Shown: positions 4,147 to 20,559, counted from the stretch's first letter. The stretch is 64,000 nt of DNA from Bacteroidales bacterium (GCA_017471965.1 JAFURF010000009.1:7972-71971), one strand, 5' to 3'. The notes: generated by a model not told the origin, from the sequence alone. A program made the numbers and translations.

Positions 4147-5187
4147 CTACACATTCAATATCTTCGCAGTCAGTTCCACCATCAACTGCGCCGGTGTCGC
4201 CTCTCCGACATCTCCACCTTTGCCCTTGAAATCATACTCCTTCAGCAATGCAATCACTGCCATGCATTTCTTCACAGGGTAGTTCCTTACAGCAGTGTCA
4301 TATTCACTGAAGAAGTACGGATTGACTCCCAGCACCTTGGCCTTCTTATCATTTCCCGGACGAGGATCGCTCATAAGCAGCGCATTGTACTTCAGGATCC
4401 TGTAGAAATGGGTATATAGGGCGCTGACAGCCATAGGCATCGCAAATTTGGCGGCAGAACCGATGTAAGAAGCAATCCTGAGCGCCTTTGCCGAATTCTT
4501 CATGGAAAGTTCCTTGGTCAGTTCAAATATGCTGAACTGTCTGCTTATCCCGACATTCTTCTCGATATCGGAAACACTCACCTCTGAAACTCCTTCAGGA
4601 AGATTCTTGAGCATCTTTTCCGTCTCCACTGCAATCTTGTTGAGATCGGTTCCTGCATGCTCAGCCAGAAGCGCGGCTGCATCAGGAGTGATCCTCATTC
4701 CCCTGCCTTGAAAGAACATAGATATCCATCTTGGCATCTCATAATCCCTCAATGCGGAAGAGTCCACGACAACACCCATCTTGGACACCGTCTTATATAG
4801 AGACTTCCTCTTGTCGGCAGAAGCACCATGCATGGCTATGACAAGCACTGTCGACTCCAATGGCTTCTGACAGTAGACTGCCAGGTCCTCAAGGGTCTTC
4901 ATCATCTGAGCCTCCTTGACGACTACAAGTTGCCTGTCAGCAAACATCGGGTAACGCCTCGCCGCAGTAATCACTGCATCCGCATCCACATCGGCACCAT
5001 AACAGACAGTCTGATTGAAATCCCGTTCACTCTCATCAAGACAATGCTCAAGAATCTCGTCACACACCATATCCACATAATAGGGCTCATCGCCCATCAG
5101 AAGATAGACGCTCTTGAAAATGCCTGCACGGACATCCTTAACTATATCCCGACAAAGGGAGTCGGTCTCTACAAAGCCTTTTGCCAT
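4147..5187 (-). CDS. holA: DNA polymerase III delta subunit
   Basis: VYLLMGDEPYY, RDFNQTVCYG, YPMFADRQLVVVKEAQ, VGISRQFSIFEL; start moved to 5187 because a TACCTTTG promoter lies at 5194-5201 (-). Confidence 0.9.
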   Translation of the reverse strand: MAKGFVETDSLCRDIVKDVRAGIFKSVYLLMGDEPYYVDMVCDEILEHCLDESERDFNQTVCYGADVDADAVITAARRYPMFADRQLVVVKEAQMMKTLEDLAVYCQKPLESTVLVIAMHGASADKRKSLYKTVSKMGVVVDSSALRDYEMPRWISMFFQGRGMRITPDAAALLAEHAGTDLNKIAVETEKMLKNLPEGVSEVSVSDIEKNVGISRQFSIFELTKELSMKNSAKALRIASYIGSAAKFAMPMAVSALYTHFYRILKYNALLMSDPRPGNDKKAKVLGVNPYFFSEYDTAVRNYPVKKCMAVIALLKEYDFKGKGGDVGEATPAQLMVELTAKILNV

Positions 5188-5291
5188 AGCCGACAAAGGT
5201 AATGCAATTTTCATAATATTCCATCTTTTGAAGCACCATTCTACAGCACGAGATACAATGAAATACCATAAATAATATGATAGGAATCAGA

Positions 5292-5338
5292 TTAATATGC
5301 AATTCATCAGATTTTTCCATTATCATATTGCATATTAA
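5292..5338. promoter_or_regulatory. Perfect 12-bp inverted repeat with 23-bp spacer over the upstream promoter region
   Basis: TTAATATGCAAT (5292-5303) / ATTGCATATTAA (5327-5338). Confidence 0.55.
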
Positions 5339-5357
5339 GAAAAAACATATACCTTTG
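5327..5357 (+). promoter_or_regulatory. Bacteroidetes housekeeping promoter for the peptide-fimbrillin unit
   Basis: -7 element TACCTTTG (5350-5357) matches TAnnTTTG; ATTG at 5327-5330 is a possible -33. Confidence 0.75.
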
Positions 5358-5395
5358 CACGGATTTAATCACACCACACTACACCACAGATGTTT

Positions 5396-5534
5396 TCCTC
5401 AATGGCATGCATCAAGGAAAGAAACAATTAAACACAACAATAACTAACAACAATTCAATTATGGAAAAGAAAATCTATGAGGCTCCAATGACCGAAGTCA
5501 TGGAGATCGAATCAGAAGGCATCCTCTGTGGATC
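5396..5534 (+). repeat. 139-bp inverted repeat, left copy (IRL)
   Basis: Reverse complement of 9838-9976 with one mismatch (5430). Confidence 0.97.
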
Positions 5535-5592
5535 TGTCCAGGACCTGAACGGAAACTCTATCGGAGGTTATGGTGACGAATTAAATTGGTAA
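5461..5592 (+). CDS. 43-aa peptide upstream of fimbrillin-like gene: MEKKIYEAPMTEVMEIESEGILCGS + VQDLNGNSIGGYGDELNW
   Basis: A-rich region before ATG 5461; first 25 aa identical to 9801-9911; YxxP...ILCGS pattern. Confidence 0.75.
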   Translation: MEKKIYEAPMTEVMEIESEGILCGSVQDLNGNSIGGYGDELNW

Positions 5593-5614
5593 ACAGTCTA
5601 AAACATCAAGAATC

Positions 5615-7501
5615 ATGAAAAGAATTTATTCATTTATGTTTGCGGCTGTAGCAATCTTCGCAGCCGCTTCATGCCAGAAGGAAATGGCAAATGAGCCACT
5701 TGAGAACAATGGTGGCGAGCAGTACACATTCAGTGCAACCATTCTCGAGACAAAGACCGTCCTCGCAGAAGGCAATAAGGTAAACTGGTCTGTAGGTGAT
5801 AATATCTCTGTATTTGACGCTGATGGAAAAGCGGTTACATTTACAGGACAGCATACTCAGGTCTCAGCAACAGCAGATTTCTCTGCTCAAGCAAATGATT
5901 ATACACCAGCAGATAATGCGTATGCAGTTTTCCCTGTAAAAGGTGATGCAACCATGACTGATGGAGTAGTTGGCATACTTAGAGTAGGAGGCGACCAGAA
6001 AGCAGTTGCAGGTAGTTTTGATCCGGAATTTGCATATCTGCTAGGAACCGAGAGCCAACCAAACACGCTAGCCTTCAAAAATATTCATAGCCTTGTGAAA
6101 TTTACAATCGGAGGTGAGACAGCACCATCAAAAGTCACTCTCGAAAATAAGGGTTCAAGAAACATTGCCGGTCAATTCAAATATAACACTCTTGCAGAAG
6201 AAAGCCCGGTTATTCAGACAGATGATAAGGGAAACGTTTTGCCGGGAGCCAAAACAATCAATCTTACACCAAAGGCTGGAGAATCATTTGAAGTAGGTAA
6301 GACTTATTACATTGTAGTTATCGGTGGTGGAAACTTTGCAAACATCGATCTTAAATTTGACGATACTGTTGTCAAGACTGTTTCAGGAGCAAAATACGCA
6401 GACGCATCAAACAATTATCTTGTCGGCAAGATCATCAATTTCGGAACAGTGAAATTCCCTGAAGTAACAGAAGAGCCTGTAGAATCGGCTATCAACGTAA
6501 CCAGAGTATGGGGACACTACGGGGAAGGTTCAACTGCATGGTCCAATTCATTAGTGTCATCCCTTGATGGTAATGACCGTAACCTTGCAATGGATGATGA
6601 ATATATCTACATACCTGAAACAAACCAATCTGGAAACATCCATAAATTCAAGGTTTCAGACGGATCATATGCTGGAACTCTTCCAATCATTGAGGATTTG
6701 AAAACTGCTACTCATTATACTTCATGTGTTAGAATGGTGAAGAATTCCGATCCTGAAATTAATGGTGGAAAAGATGTACTGGTGGTATGCAATCTTGCTT
6801 TATCCGGAGAAACATTGGTATTTGCTGCATATGAAAATGGCACTGCAAATGCTCCAGTAAAAATATGGTCTAAAGAAAACGGAGCAAATCGAAGATTTGG
6901 TGACAAATTCTCGGTCTACGGCGATTATAAAACAGCACAATACTGGGTTCGCACTTTCCAGGGCGGAGACACAATGACAGCAATTGTATGGCCTGGAAAC
7001 GGCTTTACTTGGCTTGAACCTAGTCGTAAAGATACTAATGATGATGCAAATACAATAGGTGAACTTGCATGGTACCCAGGACAAGCATCTTACTGCTTGA
7101 TTTCTACTACATCTTCTATCGGAGCACATCTGATGGATGGTGGTTCAGAGATTAAGACGTATCCGGCCCTTGCTAAGACATTTGGATATAATTTCTTTGA
7201 GGCAGCAGGCGAAAAATTCGTGGCATGGACGTCACTGATTAAAGGAAATGATAAACCACGCCTTCAGATTGTACAGTCTGATGCTAGCACATTAGCAAAA
7301 ATGCAGGATACATTCGATAATCTCGCAACCAGACTCGTATACGAGGCTCCGCTTCAGAATGCCGACGAAATGGATACTGCAGGAGTAGGTGGTGATAACA
7401 CAGTATGTGACTGCTGCGTCCGCGAGATTAATGGAGAAATCTATATTGCTGCTATGGCACAAAAGGCGGGCTTGTCCCTCTTCAAGGTTTCTGCAAAATA
7501 A
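5615..7501 (+). CDS. Fimbrillin-like (type V pilus-like) surface lipoprotein with probable C-terminal beta-propeller, variant A
   Basis: Lipobox AAAS-C20 then QKEMANE; ETKTVL, WSVGDNISVF, FKNIHSLVKFTI, GKTYYI; paralog of 7985-9781. Confidence 0.75.
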   Translation: MKRIYSFMFAAVAIFAAASCQKEMANEPLENNGGEQYTFSATILETKTVLAEGNKVNWSVGDNISVFDADGKAVTFTGQHTQVSATADFSAQANDYTPADNAYAVFPVKGDATMTDGVVGILRVGGDQKAVAGSFDPEFAYLLGTESQPNTLAFKNIHSLVKFTIGGETAPSKVTLENKGSRNIAGQFKYNTLAEESPVIQTDDKGNVLPGAKTINLTPKAGESFEVGKTYYIVVIGGGNFANIDLKFDDTVVKTVSGAKYADASNNYLVGKIINFGTVKFPEVTEEPVESAINVTRVWGHYGEGSTAWSNSLVSSLDGNDRNLAMDDEYIYIPETNQSGNIHKFKVSDGSYAGTLPIIEDLKTATHYTSCVRMVKNSDPEINGGKDVLVVCNLALSGETLVFAAYENGTANAPVKIWSKENGANRRFGDKFSVYGDYKTAQYWVRTFQGGDTMTAIVWPGNGFTWLEPSRKDTNDDANTIGELAWYPGQASYCLISTTSSIGAHLMDGGSEIKTYPALAKTFGYNFFEAAGEKFVAWTSLIKGNDKPRLQIVQSDASTLAKMQDTFDNLATRLVYEAPLQNADEMDTAGVGGDNTVCDCCVREINGEIYIAAMAQKAGLSLFKVSAK

Positions 7502-7526
7502 TCAGATCACAAATTTCGTATAATTA

Positions 7527-7570
7527 TGGCGAGGTATACATCACGGTATGCCTCGCCAGATTATATTTTA
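7527..7570 (+). terminator. Intrinsic terminator after variant A
   Basis: TGGCGAGGTATAC-ATCACG-GTATGCCTCGCCA followed by a T-rich tract. Confidence 0.7.
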
Positions 7571-7717
7571 GGGAATGATATACTTGTCTACACTCGCCTT
7601 CGAACAGAATTGGGGGCGACATTACTTCATCTGCCAGCAGTGTAGGCTGCTCCTTCGCCATTTCTGCACCTTATAACATCCAAGGTGGTATTCTGTTTTT
7701 AAACAGTTCTCCGGTCA

Positions 7718-7829
7718 GAATCAAAAAATCGCACGATTATTTGATTCTTATGCCTGTTTTGTGGAAAAAGAGTGGGTTTTATCCAATTATTTTCATTTGG
7801 AATCAAAAAACAGGAGGATTTTTTGATTC
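7718..7829. repeat. Two 30-bp 11-8-11 palindromes (7718-7747, 7800-7829)
   Basis: GAATCAAAAAA-TCGCACGA-TTATTTGATTC and GAATCAAAAAA-CAGGAGGA-TTTTTTGATTC. Confidence 0.75.
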
Positions 7830-7927
7830 TGGCTGGGATATCATGACAGATTGTGTAAACATGTATAGCATTACCTAACATTTAGTGTAAATCAGGATAG
7901 CAGCAAGTTTTGGCTTGAGTGTAATTG

Positions 7928-7972
7928 CTAAAAACCCGAGACCCTCCGTTGTGGAAAGCCTCGGGTTTTTAG
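7928..7972. terminator. Bidirectional intrinsic terminator after variant B
   Basis: CTAAAAACCCGAG...CTCGGGTTTTTAG. Confidence 0.8.
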
Positions 7973-7984
7973 ATGAGAGACGCG

Positions 7985-9781
7985 TTAGTCTGCAACTTCA
8001 AGTTTGAAATATGCAAGACCGCAGTTGTCAATGAGAACGGCAGCATATGCGTTGCCTTCTGCGTCAACATAAATATCGCAGTCGCAAACCGAACTTCCTG
8101 CAGTATTAGCCGAATCAGCATCGAGAACTGCAGCAGTAAGTTTCTTGCTTTGAGCCTCGAGGGTGTTTTTGAACTCTGCTGCAGAACCTTTATCTGCAAT
8201 CACGTTGAGGCTTCCGTTCTTAAGATTTGCATTTAACTGTGCATATGCAATGTATTTTGCACCTTTATATTCGAAGAAGTTGTATCCGAAAGTTTTTGCA
8301 AGACCTGGATCTGTTGTCCAATTATCCTTTGCAAGGTTATTCAACATATATCCGAATCCTGTATTTGTCAAAAGCGAATATGATGATTGTGCTGCATCTG
8401 GATATGTTACAAATTCTGTAATTCCTGTAAAACTAGGAACTGAGTATGTAGCATTAGGCCACACTTGTCCTGAATCATTTGTTCCGCCCGTAAAGGTACT
8501 GTTTGCTCGCTTAAAATACACTACGGCGGCATTTGAATTCCAATCAGGGAAACGGAACTCACCATTTGCCCAATCACCTACATATGTGAACTTATCACCT
8601 AAACGACGGAATGTATTAATAAGTTCTATTACTTCTGGTGCAGAATTTATACCGTTTGTATAAACGTATAATTTAAGAGTCGCACTTGAAGCAAGGTTGG
8701 AAAGTACAAGAATATCTTTACCTCCATTGATTGAAGGATCGTTGTTTTCGATCATCCTTACGCATGAAGTAGGATGGGTTCCACCTTCAACGCCTGTCAT
8801 ATTTACATCAATAGCGTCTCCTCCACTTACTGGAAAGGCTTTTACTGCAGCAGGAGTGTTGGCAGAGTTAGGCACAAATACGTATTCACCGTCTGTGGCA
8901 CAGTTTCTTGCACCATTTGTAGAAAGCCCAAGTTCAGCAAAAGGCTTTACCCAGAGACGGGTTGCTTTGAGGGCAGGAGCCTCCGGTATCCTAACTGTAC
9001 CGAGATTATATATTTTGTTTGGCTCAAGTGTTTTGTCTGAGCCAGTATTTTTAACAGGAACGTCATCAAAGTAGAGTGTAACACCACCTCCTACAATACC
9101 AGGGGTCATTGCTATATAATAGGTTTCACCAACAACAAATGACCCTGTAAGTGTAATAAATTTCTCACCATCAGTTACTGTAGCCGTATTATTTGTAAGG
9201 TCATAATTGAAATTACCACAAATCATACGGTGGCCATTATTCTGGAGTTTAACAGTAGTAGGTGCAGCATCTCCTCCGATTGTAAACTTGATGAGGGAGT
9301 GGACATTCTTGAAAGAGAGTTTTCCTTCTGATGTCTCAGTACCAACTGCAACTGCGTATCTTGAATCAAAACTTCCTGCTACCGCAGTCTGGCTACCGCC
9401 TATGTGAAGTGTGTTGATGACATTAGTACTAGCATCATAGGTTGTTGTCTTATCTGTTCTTGTAGGATATACGGCAAGGAGATTATCCGGTGCATCGAAT
9501 GCGGTCTTATTATTGAATGTAGCAGACACACTCTTTTCTGTGATGTCAGTATTGAAAACAACTTCTTCTCCTGATTTATTGAAGAGAGAAATCTCGTCTC
9601 CAGGAGTCCAGTAAATCTTCTTGGCATCATCATCTAGAACTGTTTTAGTCTCTGTTCCGATTGATGCGGTTACTGTAAAGGTTTCAAAAGATCCTTCAGG
9701 TTCATTTGCCATTTCCTTCTGGCAAGATGCAACTGCGAGAACTGCCACAGATGCAAGCAAGAATTTAGTAATTTTCTTCAT
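7985..9781 (-). CDS. Fimbrillin-like surface lipoprotein with probable C-terminal beta-propeller, variant B
   Basis: Lipobox AVAS-C20 then QKEMANE; ETKTVL, WTPGDEISLF, FKNVHSLIKFTI; shares SCVRM...INGGKD, RRxGDKF, LAKTFGYNFFE and VCDC with variant A. Confidence 0.75.
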   Translation of the reverse strand: MKKITKFLLASVAVLAVASCQKEMANEPEGSFETFTVTASIGTETKTVLDDDAKKIYWTPGDEISLFNKSGEEVVFNTDITEKSVSATFNNKTAFDAPDNLLAVYPTRTDKTTTYDASTNVINTLHIGGSQTAVAGSFDSRYAVAVGTETSEGKLSFKNVHSLIKFTIGGDAAPTTVKLQNNGHRMICGNFNYDLTNNTATVTDGEKFITLTGSFVVGETYYIAMTPGIVGGGVTLYFDDVPVKNTGSDKTLEPNKIYNLGTVRIPEAPALKATRLWVKPFAELGLSTNGARNCATDGEYVFVPNSANTPAAVKAFPVSGGDAIDVNMTGVEGGTHPTSCVRMIENNDPSINGGKDILVLSNLASSATLKLYVYTNGINSAPEVIELINTFRRLGDKFTYVGDWANGEFRFPDWNSNAAVVYFKRANSTFTGGTNDSGQVWPNATYSVPSFTGITEFVTYPDAAQSSYSLLTNTGFGYMLNNLAKDNWTTDPGLAKTFGYNFFEYKGAKYIAYAQLNANLKNGSLNVIADKGSAAEFKNTLEAQSKKLTAAVLDADSANTAGSSVCDCDIYVDAEGNAYAAVLIDNCGLAYFKLEVAD

Positions 9782-9800
9782 AATTTTCTTGTTTTAACTG

Positions 9801-9911
9801 TTACAGAGTTTCTTCGTCATAATACATAAAGTCGCCCGATCCACAGAGGATGCCTTCTGATTCGATCTCCATGACTTCGGTCATTGGAGCCTCATAGATT
9901 TTCTTTTCCAT
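9801..9911 (-). CDS. 36-aa peptide: MEKKIYEAPMTEVMEIESEGILCGS + GDFMYYDEETL
   Basis: Same 25-aa N-terminus as 5461-5592 with a different tail; directly upstream of variant B. Confidence 0.75.
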   Translation of the reverse strand: MEKKIYEAPMTEVMEIESEGILCGSGDFMYYDEETL

Positions 9912-9976
9912 AATTGAATTGTTGTTAGTTATTGTTGTGTTAAATTGTTTCTTTCCTTGATGCATGCCATTGAGGA
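9838..9976 (-). repeat. 139-bp inverted repeat, right copy (IRR)
   Basis: Reverse complement of 5396-5534, 138/139 identical. Confidence 0.97.
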
Positions 9977-10351
9977 TGAAAGGTACCTTAATGAGGACAC
10001 TACCCTTATCAGTCAAAATGCTGGAAACCAAGACATCACACAAATGAGGGCAGGCATTTCATATCAACACATCAGGTAAAACAATAGTGGGATTTCCGAT
10101 GAATTGTCATACAGAACAAAGTGAAACATCTTTGAAACAAAGATTCGGATCAAGTGAAAATGTAAGTTGGTAAAATCATTAGCCAGACCGACAGGCAGTG
10201 CTTTTGCACCGGGCACAGCATATACGAGTTTTGAACGAAAGTCGCACAAGGTGTGAGGGTAAAATGAACTTCATCTTCAGACTTGCCAAGATCTTTGCGT
10301 AGTGCAGGGCACCGCAGTTGGCAAATACGTCCGCCTGCTTTGCGCCGGTGC

Positions 10352-10432
10352 CGGCCATAAATAAGCCCGTTTTTCTGGCCGGAAGCAGGTTTTTCTAAGA
10401 GGCGGCCAGATATATAGCCGTTTTTCTGGCCG
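10352..10432. repeat. Two 30-bp imperfect palindromic direct repeats (10352-10381, 10403-10432)
   Basis: CGGCCATAAAT-AAGCCCGT-TTTTCTGGCCG and CGGCCAGATAT-ATAGCCGT-TTTTCTGGCCG, 25/30 identical. Confidence 0.7.
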
Positions 10433-10488
10433 AGATTGAAAACAACCGGGATTTTCCGTTGAGCCAGCATGATGGCAGTCATGAAAAC

Positions 10489-10523
10489 AAAAAAAGGACA
10501 GAAAACCAAAAGGTCTTCTGTCC
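10489..10523 (-). terminator. Intrinsic terminator of raiA
   Basis: GGACAGAA...TTCTGTCC stem with an A7 run on + (U tract on -). Confidence 0.75.
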
Positions 10524-10558
10524 CGAACTATTTCAGAGGAATCATCCTCCGTCAACTT

Positions 10559-10849
10559 CTATTCTGCTCTTCTCTCCTTTACTTTCACAAGTTTTTCCTT
10601 GAGAATGTCTGCGCAGTCCACTACTGCATCTTCGAAGGTCTTGGCATTCTTCTCGACAACGAGATTGTTGCCAGGAATGCTCACCTGTACCTTCACATTC
10701 TTGTTTTCATGATCTGGAAGCAATGACAGCGCTACGTCAACAGCAGTAACCGCGTCATAGAATTTCTCAAGTCTTGAGAACTTCTTCTCTACAAAGTCCA
10801 ACAGTTTCTGATCTGCATTGAACTTGATCGACTGCACTCTAATCTCCAT
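10559..10849 (-). CDS. raiA: Ribosome-associated translation inhibitor / hibernation factor
   Basis: MEIRVQSIKFNADQKLLDFVEKK...KTFEDAVVD; follows xerC as in other Bacteroidales. Confidence 0.9.
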   Translation of the reverse strand: MEIRVQSIKFNADQKLLDFVEKKFSRLEKFYDAVTAVDVALSLLPDHENKNVKVQVSIPGNNLVVEKNAKTFEDAVVDCADILKEKLVKVKERRAE

Positions 10850-11870
10850 TTTTACCTCCTTTTTTTGCCCTTGGATGGGCTTGTTCATAAATAGTCTTCA
10901 GCCGGGCGATGCTGCTGTGGGTATATATCTGCGTTGACGCCAGAGAAGAATGTCCGAGCATCTGCTTGATGGAATAAAGGTCAGTACCCTCATTCATCAG
11001 TCCGGTCGCGAGAGAATGTCTGAGTACATGTGGAGACTTGCGTCCCGTGATGCCCTTCACATTCCCAAACTCACGCTTCAATGCCCTGTCTACATACACT
11101 GGATACAGTTTCTTCCCTCTGTATGTGACAAACAACGGTTCCTTCAAAGACCTTTTCCCTCCGCACATCGTCTCAACTGCTTTCAAATATAACAATAATT
11201 CTTCAGACAATGAAACAACAAGAGGAATTTCTCGCATTTTATCGCCTTTTCCATGTACTTTTACAACATTTCGACCAAAATCCACATCTTCATTCCTCAA
11301 TCCTATCAATTCCGCACGACGGATACCAAGGCAGTAAAGGGTCATTATGATCAGCCTGTGAAGCAATCTCTCATATACTTCCTTCCTTCTGTCTTCAGAA
11401 GTATCGGGAGACAAAAGTTCGGCAGCACTCTCATCATCAGAATAAAAGGCCGTGGATGCGAAATATTCCTCCAGAGCGGCAGCCTTGAAAAAATGCGGAA
11501 TCCTCTTCTCGACCTTGGGCTTGGGGACGATCTTGACAGGATTGGACTTGAGACGTCCCTGCTGCATGAGATACCTGCAGAATCCGCTCAATGCCGACAG
11601 ATGCAGACTGACAGTCTTCGGCGACTTCGGAGGATCAGCGTCGAGAAGAGACGCTTCATACCCTCGTATCAGCGACGGAATAAGGGAAGCGACCAGTTCA
11701 TCATCAGTATATCCGACATCACCTTCAGCAGCCCATAAAGCAAAATCAGACAGTGCGGACTCATAGATCTGCACTGTCCGTGGGGAGTACCTGCGGATGT
11801 CACGGATGTAGGATATATATTGTTGTAAGATTCTCACGTCGCTTCGCTCCTCAGAATGACTGTCTGTCAA
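10839..11870 (-). CDS. xerC: Tyrosine recombinase XerC
   Basis: YSPRT, GIRRAEL, GKGDKMR, SPHVLRHSLAT, LGHSSLASTQIYTH (R-K-H-R-H-Y intact); synteny with raiA. Confidence 0.85.
   Translation of the reverse strand: MTDSHSEERSDVRILQQYISYIRDIRRYSPRTVQIYESALSDFALWAAEGDVGYTDDELVASLIPSLIRGYEASLLDADPPKSPKTVSLHLSALSGFCRYLMQQGRLKSNPVKIVPKPKVEKRIPHFFKAAALEEYFASTAFYSDDESAAELLSPDTSEDRRKEVYERLLHRLIIMTLYCLGIRRAELIGLRNEDVDFGRNVVKVHGKGDKMREIPLVVSLSEELLLYLKAVETMCGGKRSLKEPLFVTYRGKKLYPVYVDRALKREFGNVKGITGRKSPHVLRHSLATGLMNEGTDLYSIKQMLGHSSLASTQIYTHSSIARLKTIYEQAHPRAKKGGKNGD
11829..11860 (-). repeat. REP-like element in frame at the xerC 5' end
   Basis: GTCATTCTGAGGAGCGAAGCGACGTGAGAATC on - strand, encoding HSEERSDVRI. 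Confidence 0.55.
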
Positions 11871-17862: not shown

Positions 17863-19031
17863 CTTAAAAGTTTCTTCTTTATCACTGCCAGAAAGGTATG
17901 TACCTTTTCATAAACAGTCCTGAACAGAGTCTTACGGACCACGAAAGAACTCATATATCCGATCAGATCTTCTGCCGAATGTACACCTTTGAAAAACTCC
18001 TCCCTTTTTTCAGGCATGGTCAGAGCAGCATCAAAACCTGCATTTCGTTTTCTTCCAGTTCCAAAATCTGCCGGGACAGTCTTGAGGCCATCCCTTACAA
18101 GAGCATCAAACATCCGGAGTCCTGCATCAGTGTTCACCAGCACCAGAGATGCACCACGGTCATCATCAAACTCAGGCGCGACTTCAGACACATTCCACAG
18201 ATCAGCGAGAGTGAGGTCACTTCCGCTTCTTCCGTTTCTGGCAGGACACGAATAGCACGAAGGACGCAATGTCATATCCTGCAGGAAAAGCGCCATATAC
18301 GGATCATCCATCTTATGTACACGATGACTTTTCACCACACCATCAGACAGCACATCATACTTCACACTATACTGTCTCCAACTTTCGGACTTATCTCGGA
18401 AAGAAACCCTGCACAACCTGCCGCCTGAGCGTTTTTCATATGCAGCAACATATTTCTCCCAAAGTCCGGGACTCGGAGCACCGTGGCACGCAACATCAAC
18501 CGCGAGAAGATTGCCTTTCCTTCCTCCAAGATAGTTGTCAAGTCCCGCTATCTGACACGGAGTACCGGCAAACAGGACGCGCTTCCCATCCTCCAGCAGA
18601 TCTCTCACCTCTTCAAAAACGGCATAGAGGTCACTCTGCACATATTTTGAACCTTTCAATCTCTCAAGTCCGGCAGAATCCGTCACATCTGCATGCCCGA
18701 CAGTCATGTCTGCCATGAATGCCGCGCCATACACTACTCCGCCTTCCTGAAGGTATTTTCCTGCAAGCATCGGGAACAATCCTCCGGATGAACATCCTTC
18801 CATATCTGCCTCCGATCTTGCAGCAAAGACTGCGAGAGGGTCCGATTCAGATTGCGGATTAAGGACAGGACATACCGTTTCACATTTTCCGCAACTTATG
18901 CAGATGTCAGGATTGGCAACAGGATAGTCGAACCCCTCCCTGTCACGACGCATGACAATGCACTGCACAGGGCAGGCATTGACGCAGGCAGTACAACCGC
19001 AGCATAGAGATTTATCCGTTATCCTTATCAT
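17859..19031 (-). CDS. Coenzyme F420 hydrogenase beta-subunit-like Fe-S protein
   Basis: CCGCTAC..CP and CISCGKC..CP ferredoxin motifs, SSGG, GSKYVQS, GTPCQ, CHG, RPSCYSC. Confidence 0.88.
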   Translation of the reverse strand: MIRITDKSLCCGCTACVNACPVQCIVMRRDREGFDYPVANPDICISCGKCETVCPVLNPQSESDPLAVFAARSEADMEGCSSGGLFPMLAGKYLQEGGVVYGAAFMADMTVGHADVTDSAGLERLKGSKYVQSDLYAVFEEVRDLLEDGKRVLFAGTPCQIAGLDNYLGGRKGNLLAVDVACHGAPSPGLWEKYVAAYEKRSGGRLCRVSFRDKSESWRQYSVKYDVLSDGVVKSHRVHKMDDPYMALFLQDMTLRPSCYSCPARNGRSGSDLTLADLWNVSEVAPEFDDDRGASLVLVNTDAGLRMFDALVRDGLKTVPADFGTGRKRNAGFDAALTMPEKREEFFKGVHSAEDLIGYMSSFVVRKTLFRTVYEKVHTFLAVIKKKLLR

Positions 19032-20559
19032 TCCTTCTGATTCTATTCCTTACCGTTTCCCGGAGCCATAGTCTCTCGTCTGCTCTCAATCCAAGCATCC
19101 ATATCACAAACCCGGACCATAACACACAAAGTCCGGCACTGAGGAGGAAACCGGCAAAACCGGCAGGCTTCACCACATCTGTCAGTATAGGAAGCACCAA
19201 AGAACCGCAAAGGACCTTGAACAAGGCGGTTCCCCAGACTTCATCCAGAAACTTCCAGACAGGAAATCCCGTCGCCCTTCCGAGCATTGTGAGTCTTGCA
19301 AAAAGACATATCTGTGAAATCACTATTGCAACGACTACGGTCACTTCCGGTGCAGCGCCAAGTTTGAGGCACAGATATGACACAGGGACATTCATGAGTT
19401 GGATTCCTCCTACCACAATCTGATAGTTCCTGATGTTTCCGGTAGCGAGCATTGCAGTTATCATAGGATTGGAGAGAGATTCACTCAATGCAAAGACAAG
19501 GAACAGACGAACAAAAGATGCAGCATGTTCCGGCACATCCTTCAGCCACACTCCCAGCAGAAAGTCCGCATTGAAGAATATCGGAAGTGCAATCAGAAGA
19601 AGCAGACAGAAGGAAAGTCTTGACGATTTCCGCACAAGGGTATACATATACTCATGCTCGGACGAAGCATATGATTTCGTGATCTGAGGATTGACGGCCG
19701 TCATGAAATTGGTGACGAATCCCTGCACGGCACCGTTGAGCTGGACCGCGACCCCGCGGGCCGCATTCACTGCTGGATCAGAGAAAAGATTGACAAGGAT
19801 ATTGCCTCCCTGGTCACGCAGAACTCCTGACGCCACACCGATGAAGTTCCATCCGGCAAAGGAGAACATCTCCCTGATCAGACTTCCGTCCATGACAGGA
19901 CTGTACCTGCACTCTTCAAAATGCCTTCTGCAGTAAATTCCATACGCTGCGCGCACCGCAATCACAACGCCCGCCATCAATGCAGAATAAAGCACCAGAC
20001 GGTCACCTGAAGAATACATGATGACAAACGCCGTCCCGAAACGCAGAATTCCGTCCAATATGCCGATATATGCATATGCGGACATCTTTTCATGTGCAGT
20101 GATGGACGCCATCTGCGGAACACTCATAAGGTTGACCACAAACGCAAGCAGTGAAAACTGCAGCACCCACTTTGCCGCAGTAATCCGTTCCGGTGCAATG
20201 GTCATCTTGTTCTCTATGAACCAAAGACCTGCAGGTTCCGCCAAGACAATTACTATCACGGCAAGAATGAACTGTATGGTCACTGCAGTCGAATAGACCT
20301 TGTTCAGTTGAGCGTCGGCGCCTTTGCCCATCTCAAAGGTAATGAATCTGGAAACCGCAGAGTTGAGGGCTCCGGAAATGATCGTGAACATAGCCACAAC
20401 GCCACCGACGACATTGTATACTCCGAAGTCGTTTTCACCCAATGCGGACAAGACAATTCTTGATGTGAAAAGTCCGAGGAACATCATGAAAAGCATCCTG
20501 ACATAAAGCATCAGGGTGTTCCTGGCAATTCTGCCCGTCTTATGCATGTTTGTCTCCAT
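19012..20559 (-). CDS. Polysaccharide flippase (Wzx/MATE-like)
   Basis: RIARNTLMLYVRM, DFGVYNVVGGVV, AHEKM, PQITKSYA; many TM segments. Confidence 0.85.
   Translation of the reverse strand: METNMHKTGRIARNTLMLYVRMLFMMFLGLFTSRIVLSALGENDFGVYNVVGGVVAMFTIISGALNSAVSRFITFEMGKGADAQLNKVYSTAVTIQFILAVIVIVLAEPAGLWFIENKMTIAPERITAAKWVLQFSLLAFVVNLMSVPQMASITAHEKMSAYAYIGILDGILRFGTAFVIMYSSGDRLVLYSALMAGVVIAVRAAYGIYCRRHFEECRYSPVMDGSLIREMFSFAGWNFIGVASGVLRDQGGNILVNLFSDPAVNAARGVAVQLNGAVQGFVTNFMTAVNPQITKSYASSEHEYMYTLVRKSSRLSFCLLLLIALPIFFNADFLLGVWLKDVPEHAASFVRLFLVFALSESLSNPMITAMLATGNIRNYQIVVGGIQLMNVPVSYLCLKLGAAPEVTVVVAIVISQICLFARLTMLGRATGFPVWKFLDEVWGTALFKVLCGSLVLPILTDVVKPAGFAGFLLSAGLCVLWSGFVIWMLGLRADERLWLRETVRNRIRRNDKDNG

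Follow-up and report, generated by a model that had tools for sequence, protein, structure and literature searches.

A segment of 4.58 kb at positions 5396-9976 of a 64,000-nt stretch of DNA from a Bacteroidales bacterium (GCA_017471965.1, JAFURF010000009.1:7972-71971; this whole stretch is called the window) is probably an invertible segment of the shufflon type, in which inversion alters genes. We put the probability of this reading at about 0.78. The segment lies between holA and hpf and holds two convergent cassettes, A and B, each consisting of a micropeptide gene and the gene of a lipoprotein of about 600 amino acids (aa). Both orientations of the segment exist in otherwise identical strain backgrounds, with the breakpoints at the inverted repeats that enclose it.

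Layout of the segment

A repeat search of the window returned two inverted repeats of 139 nt (5396-5534 and 9838-9976) that are 99% complementary and 4303 nt apart, with a lone mismatch at repeat position 35 (A versus T). Each repeat comprises the last 65 nt of the leader and codons 1-25 of a micropeptide gene. The repeat thus overlaps coding sequence and ends within codon 25, beyond which the micropeptide tails and the lipoproteins differ between the cassettes. The other inverted matches in the region are at most 91 nt long with 71-81% identity, because the two lipoprotein genes are paralogs. A preliminary description of this DNA had already claimed the 139-bp pair with its one mismatch, two convergent peptide-lipoprotein units with a terminator each, strong divergence of the lipoproteins and, by eye, a higher AT content than in the flanks. 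The repeat search reproduced the pair, open reading frames and hairpins agree with the two units, the lipoproteins are 37% identical over their full length, and the computed GC content is 0.38-0.44 across 5000-10000 as compared to 0.46-0.52 in the flanks. The same description regarded a repeat preceding many scattered genes without inverted pairing as evidence against inversion. The genome bin (2.32 Mb, 85 contigs, 64% completeness) contains two copies of the repeat, just this pair. The features of the region are as follows.

4147-5214, minus strand: holA (DNA polymerase III delta), fixed left neighbour (TIGR01128 at 228.8 bits, PF06144)
5327-5357, plus strand: putative fixed promoter, from motif and conservation, with -7 box TACCTTTG at 5350-5357 and TTG about 20 nt upstream
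5396-5534: left inverted repeat, leader and micropeptide codons 1-25
5396-5416: outermost part of the left repeat, an imperfect dyad (CCTCAAT-N7-ATCAAGG) with its mirror copy at 9956-9976, candidate site of crossing-over
5461-5592, plus strand: micropeptide A, 43 aa
5611-5697 and 9699-9785: weaker inverted repeat, nested inside the segment and spanning the signal peptides of the lipoproteins, 87 nt, 76%
5615-7501, plus strand: lipoprotein A (lipoA), 628 aa, pilin-like N-terminal domain and six-bladed propeller
7527-7558, plus strand: terminator-like hairpin after lipoprotein A
7928-7972, minus strand: hairpin after lipoprotein B
7985-9781, minus strand: lipoprotein B (lipoB), 598 aa, paralog of A
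9801-9911, minus strand: micropeptide B, 36 aa
9838-9976: right inverted repeat
9977-10494, minus strand: hpf-side spacer without TAnnTTTG box, presumed silent position
10495-10524, minus strand: hpf terminator, 13-pair hairpin followed by a T-run
10559-10888, minus strand: hpf/raiA, fixed right neighbour (PF02482, TIGR00741)
10839-11870, minus strand: Xer-type tyrosine recombinase (best NCBIfam match XerC), housekeeping, at most a possible invertase

Both orientations in public assemblies

Contigs carrying the locus were found by looking up the exact micropeptide sequences in public assemblies. The order seen in the window (holA / A ... B / hpf) is present in contigs L012, L013, L014, L016 and L017, and also in L004 and L005 of a related species. 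The reverse order (holA / B ... A / hpf) is present in L011, L015, L023 and L026, where L015 and L020 denote one contig. In L026 the holA flank is joined to the gene of micropeptide B. In total, about 4 of about 30 contigs examined were flipped. Over its 4711 nt, contig L011 has 1 mismatch to a sequence in which window positions 5266-5395 are joined to the reverse complement of 5396-9976. When L014 is flipped in silico it aligns with 0 mismatches to L023 (11,047 nt) and to L020/L015 (14,117 nt); L014 and L023 come from one study series and one pipeline. A base-by-base comparison places the start of the flank swap at the first base of the outer repeat boundary in all flipped contigs, and cassette-specific sequence starts directly after the last base of the repeat at the inner boundary.

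The flipped contigs could be assembly artefacts in which the segment was traversed the wrong way between its inverted repeats. Inverted repeats longer than the k-mer permit both traversals, and the Logan contigs (24 runs, k=31) do end at the repeats, so that the orientation within a sample is unreadable from them. However, the flips were obtained with two pipelines, MEGAHIT at k=141 (L011 and L015) and two scaffold series (L023 and L026), the same pipelines yield the other state in other samples (L014, L017, L004), and the junctions are base-exact. A k of 141 exceeds the 135-139-nt repeat, and reads spanning the repeat are therefore needed to form the MEGAHIT contigs. Base-exact flips, shared pipelines and a k above the repeat length make misassembly a highly improbable explanation.

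Putative promoter and proposed switch

Between holA and the hpf stop, a single copy of the Bacteroidetes -7 box TAnnTTTG stands ahead of a cassette. It is TACCTTTG at 5350-5357, outside the repeats and at the position where the preliminary description had placed the promoter. The motif does not occur on the minus strand in the interval from the right repeat to the hpf stop (9977-10560), nor inside the repeats, nor facing outward at their inner edges. The box aligns at the same place in the two-cassette contig L004, in the single-cassette contig L070, and in L063 and L066, where the family heads SusC/SusD loci of the polysaccharide utilization locus (PUL) type. On the hpf side of L004, the distance from the hpf terminator to the repeat is short, about 55 nt.

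With the box on the holA side only, and the hpf terminator followed by a spacer without a box, inversion should select the cassette that is transcribed. One promoter would stay fixed outside the segment beside holA, and crossing-over between the repeats would flip the segment. This would join cassette A (window state) or cassette B (flipped state) to the fixed promoter and park the other cassette behind the hpf terminator without a promoter of its own. Expression would then take place on the holA side, while the hpf side would store a silent cassette. The switch that the preliminary description had proposed is supported by the exact flipped forms in the same strain background, together with the box found on the holA side only and the terminator without box on the hpf side. 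A model of the Mpi/Tsr type, with an invertible promoter, was rejected because its promoter would have to be part of the invertible segment, whereas the -7 box at 5350 is located beyond the repeats.

Two metatranscriptome runs from one study gave contigs on an A-type lipoprotein gene (5544-5735 and 5717-7655) and heavily on hpf. The same runs gave no contigs on cassette B, which has no bearing on silence of B, as the B allele is up to 66% divergent between strains and would escape matching.

Recombination

The repeat arms evolve together, and recombination is ongoing. The flanks of L004 are about 80% identical to those of the window, and both L004 arms share substitutions and an indel that distinguish them from the window arms. 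The substitutions common to both arms indicate concerted evolution, and the arms are homogenised within each species. At the outer edge, the 21-nt dyad is present in both two-cassette species and absent from L070, L063 and L066. In L004 the arms of the dyad are conserved while its spacer is changed in both repeat arms. Because the flank swap starts at the dyad and the dyad is confined to two-cassette genomes, it might be the crossover site, although its arms match at only 5 of 7 positions. Site-specific recombination at this dyad and general homologous recombination over the 139 nt have roughly equal odds.

The recombinase gene next to hpf does not suggest a dedicated enzyme. Its best NCBIfam match, XerC, is below the trusted cut-off. 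The Xer-type gene was found in 54 of 61 genomes of the order, with a single match in each. At 27 of 29 loci examined hpf follows it directly downstream, and it does so in the single-cassette L070 as well. This order-wide pairing with hpf marks it as a housekeeping neighbour, and since the synteny also holds where the cassette is absent, the gene was rejected as the default dedicated invertase. The 64%-complete bin contains one further tyrosine recombinase (contig C29) and one serine recombinase (contig C21), both away from the locus.

Weighing of the evidence

Several points weigh against a switch of the proposed kind. The evidence for flips comes from assembled contigs, which leaves mixed orientation within one population presumptive. 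The allele at repeat position 35 is linked to cassette A in L012, but to cassette B in L011, L013 and the window; this indicates gene conversion or variable crossovers rather than a single fixed crossover point. A dedicated recombinase was not found in or beside the segment, the neighbouring gene being a housekeeping Xer only. On the side of expression, a near-miss box, TACCTTTC, abuts the right repeat, and weak transcription of the parked cassette is therefore possible. The promoter and the silence of the parked cassette are predictions from motifs and conservation.

In view of these points, the inversion could be real but incidental, that is, a strain polymorphism produced by RecA-type recombination between 139-nt homologies rather than a fast programmed switch. 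The repeats are far longer than the core site of a recombinase needs to be, no dedicated invertase is encoded nearby, the distribution of the position-35 allele is as variable crossovers or gene conversion would give, and the flipped form makes up a small part of the contigs. Against this, the flip recurs in backgrounds that have 0-1 mismatches over 5-14 kb, which indicates that inversion is much faster than point mutation. It also occurs in two B-allele backgrounds (L011 versus L015/L023), two species keep homogenised arms, and the outer-edge dyad is restricted to genomes with two cassettes. We consider incidental recombination rather unlikely; the effect on expression would be the same even if it applied.

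It is also conceivable that the segment inverts without regulatory effect, both cassettes being transcribed in either orientation by read-through from hpf or from an unrecognised promoter located within the repeat or the hpf-side spacer. The position of TACCTTTC directly outside the right repeat would agree with this, as would the direction of hpf, which is that of cassette B, and its high coverage in RNA libraries; moreover, the promoter prediction depends on one 8-nt motif. However, TAnnTTTG does not occur in the repeat or the spacer, the near-miss box is not kept in L004, hpf is followed by the 13-pair hairpin with its T-run, and the holA-side box is kept throughout the family. Transcription of both cassettes is therefore improbable, and a switch that exchanges whole cassettes at a fixed promoter remains the preferred reading.

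Lipoproteins

Both lipoproteins have a signal peptide ending in A-S-C-Q-K-E. Searches with Pfam and NCBIfam gave no family match for lipoA or lipoB, and a sequence profile search of the PDB with the lipoprotein found nothing. An AlphaFold2 model of lipoprotein A, with a predicted local distance difference test score (pLDDT) of 86, shows a six-bladed propeller at residues 290-628. Its nearest structure is 4ftd, a DUF4623 protein (Z 27.3, root mean square deviation 3.1, 305 residues aligned), and the second-best structural match has a Z of 19.8. The Pfam model of DUF4623 (PF15416) matches neither A nor B and only 1 of 57 relatives (1.5e-7). The N-terminal domain, residues 23-292, was modelled alone with a pLDDT of 89. 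In a Foldseek search of the PDB, each of its top 20 matches is a pilin or 'cell adhesion' structure from Bacteroidales (3t2l, 3ufi, 4k4k, 3sy6, Mfa4), with Mfa2 and FimA1 lower in the list. The domain thus has the two-lobed beta-sandwich fold of the type V pilin (FimA/Mfa) superfamily. The probability of these matches is about 1 and their template modelling (TM) scores are moderate, 0.3-0.47.

The preliminary description had called the proteins fimbrillin-like. This holds for the fold of the N-terminal domain, but not for the sequence or for the C-terminal half, which is a propeller. Pilin sequence families (P_gingi_FimA, Mfa_like_1 and the like) have no match in A, B or the 57 relatives by Pfam and NCBIfam. 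There are no pilus genes near the locus, and the C-terminal propeller takes the place of donor strands. Genes for relatives with 41-53% identity stand first in SusC/SusD loci that also contain GH3, GH127 and DUF4855 genes, and the C-terminal domain is also found behind DUF1735 and DUF4988 N-termini. The family probably comprises surface proteins that bind ligands or glycans, and a switch would probably serve to vary the surface as a defence against phages or host immunity, or to replace one ligand by another.

Micropeptide

The gene split by the repeat encodes a micropeptide with a constant N-terminal half and a cassette-specific acidic/aromatic tail, which in micropeptide A ends in W. Its general motif is Y-x-x-P ... 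E-G-[VI]-L-C-x-S, followed by a variable stretch and an acidic/aromatic tail, in most cases with a terminal W. This small open reading frame is conserved ahead of members of the lipoprotein family in every context examined (for example L063:7866-7979, L066:7946-8068 and L070:7844-7978). Pfam and NCBIfam gave nothing usable for either micropeptide, and a word-indexed search found only 5 near-identical matches. A profile search of 1.84 billion cluster representatives, in contrast, returned a family of 785 representatives (E ≤0.001), nearly all of 35-60 aa, none of which has a name in the sources searched. For a distant micropeptide neighbour, L161, neither a Pfam match nor any similarity in sequence to lipoA was found.

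Prediction of a complex of micropeptide A and lipoprotein A gave a score of 0.63, as compared to 0.00 for the best of 3 controls, and passes the mark set for such predictions. Among solved complexes 58 of 80 reach this mark, as against 2 of 110 among mismatched pairs. At least 42% of the contacts agree between runs, with a partner pLDDT of at least 35. In the model, micropeptide residues 34-43 contact lipoprotein A at 155-162 and 256-277, the last ten residues lying against strand 271-277 of the pilin-like domain. At the level of a model, these predictions support binding of micropeptide A to lipoprotein A. The micropeptide has no signal sequence that would bring it to the lipoprotein. As a tentative and rather doubtful extension, the micropeptide could be the cognate partner of the pilin-like lipoprotein, its W-ending tail docking as an added strand, in which case the switch would flip matched pairs. 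If this were true, such cognate pairing would be a widespread and unannotated two-component surface module in Bacteroidales.

The YxxP motif could also be taken for that of a leader of a ribosomally synthesized and post-translationally modified peptide (RiPP) of the lasso type. However, the PUL-type loci L063 and L066, which encode the same micropeptide, contain neither maturase nor RiPP recognition element genes. Genes for PqqD-like, NTP_transf_5 and weakly ScmC-like proteins are located about 7 kb from the cassette in L003:1-1991 and L012:1-1151, upstream of the window start, the PqqD-like gene in these two contigs only; PUL-type loci carrying the same micropeptide lack them.

Origin and strain variation

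Four species-level relatives (L070, L103, L104 and L105) have one peptide-lipoprotein unit in the same holA-hpf gap and lack the repeat. The switch therefore originated when a cassette already residing there was duplicated in inverted orientation. The DNA of the repeat has only chance-level short matches in 60 related genomes, and a k-mer screen for inverted repeats in 58 species-level loci found a long pair only in the species of the window.

The A alleles are 75-100% identical between strains. The B slot is far more variable, the B proteins of the window and of L014 (9539-11374) being 34% identical in strains whose flanks are at least 92% identical. Conversely, allele A of L004 (8001-9863) is 95% identical to that of L014, though the L004 flanks are as distant from the window as noted above, and window 6275-7526 has 93.5% DNA identity to L004. 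These identities suggest an exchange of cassettes both among strains and across species. A silent slot with unrelated alleles suggests that the locus may also serve as a store and exchange point for surface variants.

The nested inverted repeat is longer or better matched in some contigs, with 79-98 nt and 94-100% identity in L014 (7151-7229 / 11300-11378) and L102 (2058-2155 / 6226-6323). It could swap lipoprotein bodies between peptides, and no such hybrid is present in the contigs examined. An extra gene for a 323-aa protein without Pfam match lies between the convergent cassettes of L004 (9943-10914). The hpf-side flank varies between strains, as a Fic-domain gene is found just upstream of the hpf-side spacer leading to the repeat in the short contigs L024 (177-1211) and L025 (148-1182). 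The hpf-side spacer of the window has two hairpin-forming direct repeats of 30 nt, 51 nt apart, at 10352-10432. Contigs from two RNA-library runs skip exactly 51 nt, from 10370 to 10422, which indicates that the copy number of the direct repeat varies.

Elsewhere, inverted repeats of 42-55 nt bracket a whole gene for a 746-aa protein, its N-terminus resembling the pilin-like domain, in two Bacteroidales metagenome-assembled genomes from human gut (Hadza) (L111:7495-7539 / 10443-10487; L110:7232-7273 / 10274-10315), and this locus may be another inverton. Contig C12 of the same genome as the window carries propeller paralogs on opposite strands about 8 kb apart (10198-11214, plus; 18967-19977, minus). 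Such opposite-strand pairs, in this and four related genomes, were rejected as the same device because they lack inverted repeats of at least 40 nt.

Significance

The contigs provide base-exact natural evidence of a cassette-swapping inversion in Candidatus Cryptobacteroides-like Bacteroidales, a lineage that is abundant in ruminant guts and uncultured. The switch would add a new class of target for surface variation in Bacteroidales, a pilin-plus-propeller lipoprotein with a leading micropeptide, and would do so without a dedicated local invertase. Storage and exchange of variants bear on phage-host dynamics and on strain tracking in gut metagenomes. Cultivable relatives would allow study of the large unnamed micropeptide family.

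Comparison with known systems

The preliminary description did not recognise the layout from described systems. It is, however, of a known type, the shufflon or 'partial intergenic inverton' (bioRxiv 10.1101/521070; PMC9881135; PMC10028968). Gene-altering inversions and partial intergenic invertons (PMC9881135; PMC10028968) have repeats that overlap coding sequence, with a constant upstream part and alternative downstream parts, and this is the arrangement found here. The main texts of these two papers do not name this gene family or lineage, and the literature searched contains no paper linking Cryptobacteroides to such an inverton.

Within the same order, the closest parallels are the PUL shufflons of Bacteroides. 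The B. thetaiotaomicron shufflon BT1033-52 uses the tyrosine recombinase BT1041 (bioRxiv 10.1101/521070), and SusC/SusD shufflons of B. fragilis are cited in the same work. As in these systems, one promoter and a complete 5' end would be recombined onto alternative operons for surface proteins, and a further link is that relatives of the lipoprotein described here also head SusC/SusD loci. Only the Bacteroides shufflons have the recombinase within the locus, a 7-bp site in short repeats, susC genes as targets and, in B. thetaiotaomicron, three partners. The segment between holA and hpf has two partners, repeats of 139 nt, a micropeptide-lipoprotein target and no dedicated recombinase nearby.

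The topology is that of the G segment of phage Mu and the C segment of P1, which are inverted by Gin and Cin. In these segments a fixed promoter and a constant 5' part at the repeat face the convergent cassettes Sv-U and Sv'-U', and the flip selects the pair. The serine invertase is encoded beside the segment, the repeats are 34 bp long, an enhancer is involved, and the products are phage tail fibres. The segment described here shares the fixed promoter and the two convergent two-gene cassettes between inverted repeats, but has none of the adjacent serine invertase, 34-bp repeats and enhancer, and is chromosomal in a gut anaerobe.

In the sap locus of Campylobacter fetus, long conserved 5' regions of opposed paralogs recombine in a largely RecA-dependent manner, and a single promoter gives surface-protein variation. 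Here too, long conserved 5' regions of oppositely oriented paralogs form the recombination substrate. The difference is that C. fetus inverts the promoter-bearing segment between flanking cassettes, whereas here the cassettes invert and the promoter would be fixed. The logic of the shufflon is thus already known, and at this locus it acts on a previously undescribed gene pair. The locus differs from known shufflon-type systems in its gene family, its host and its repeat length, in that the split gene encodes a micropeptide, and in having no dedicated recombinase nearby.

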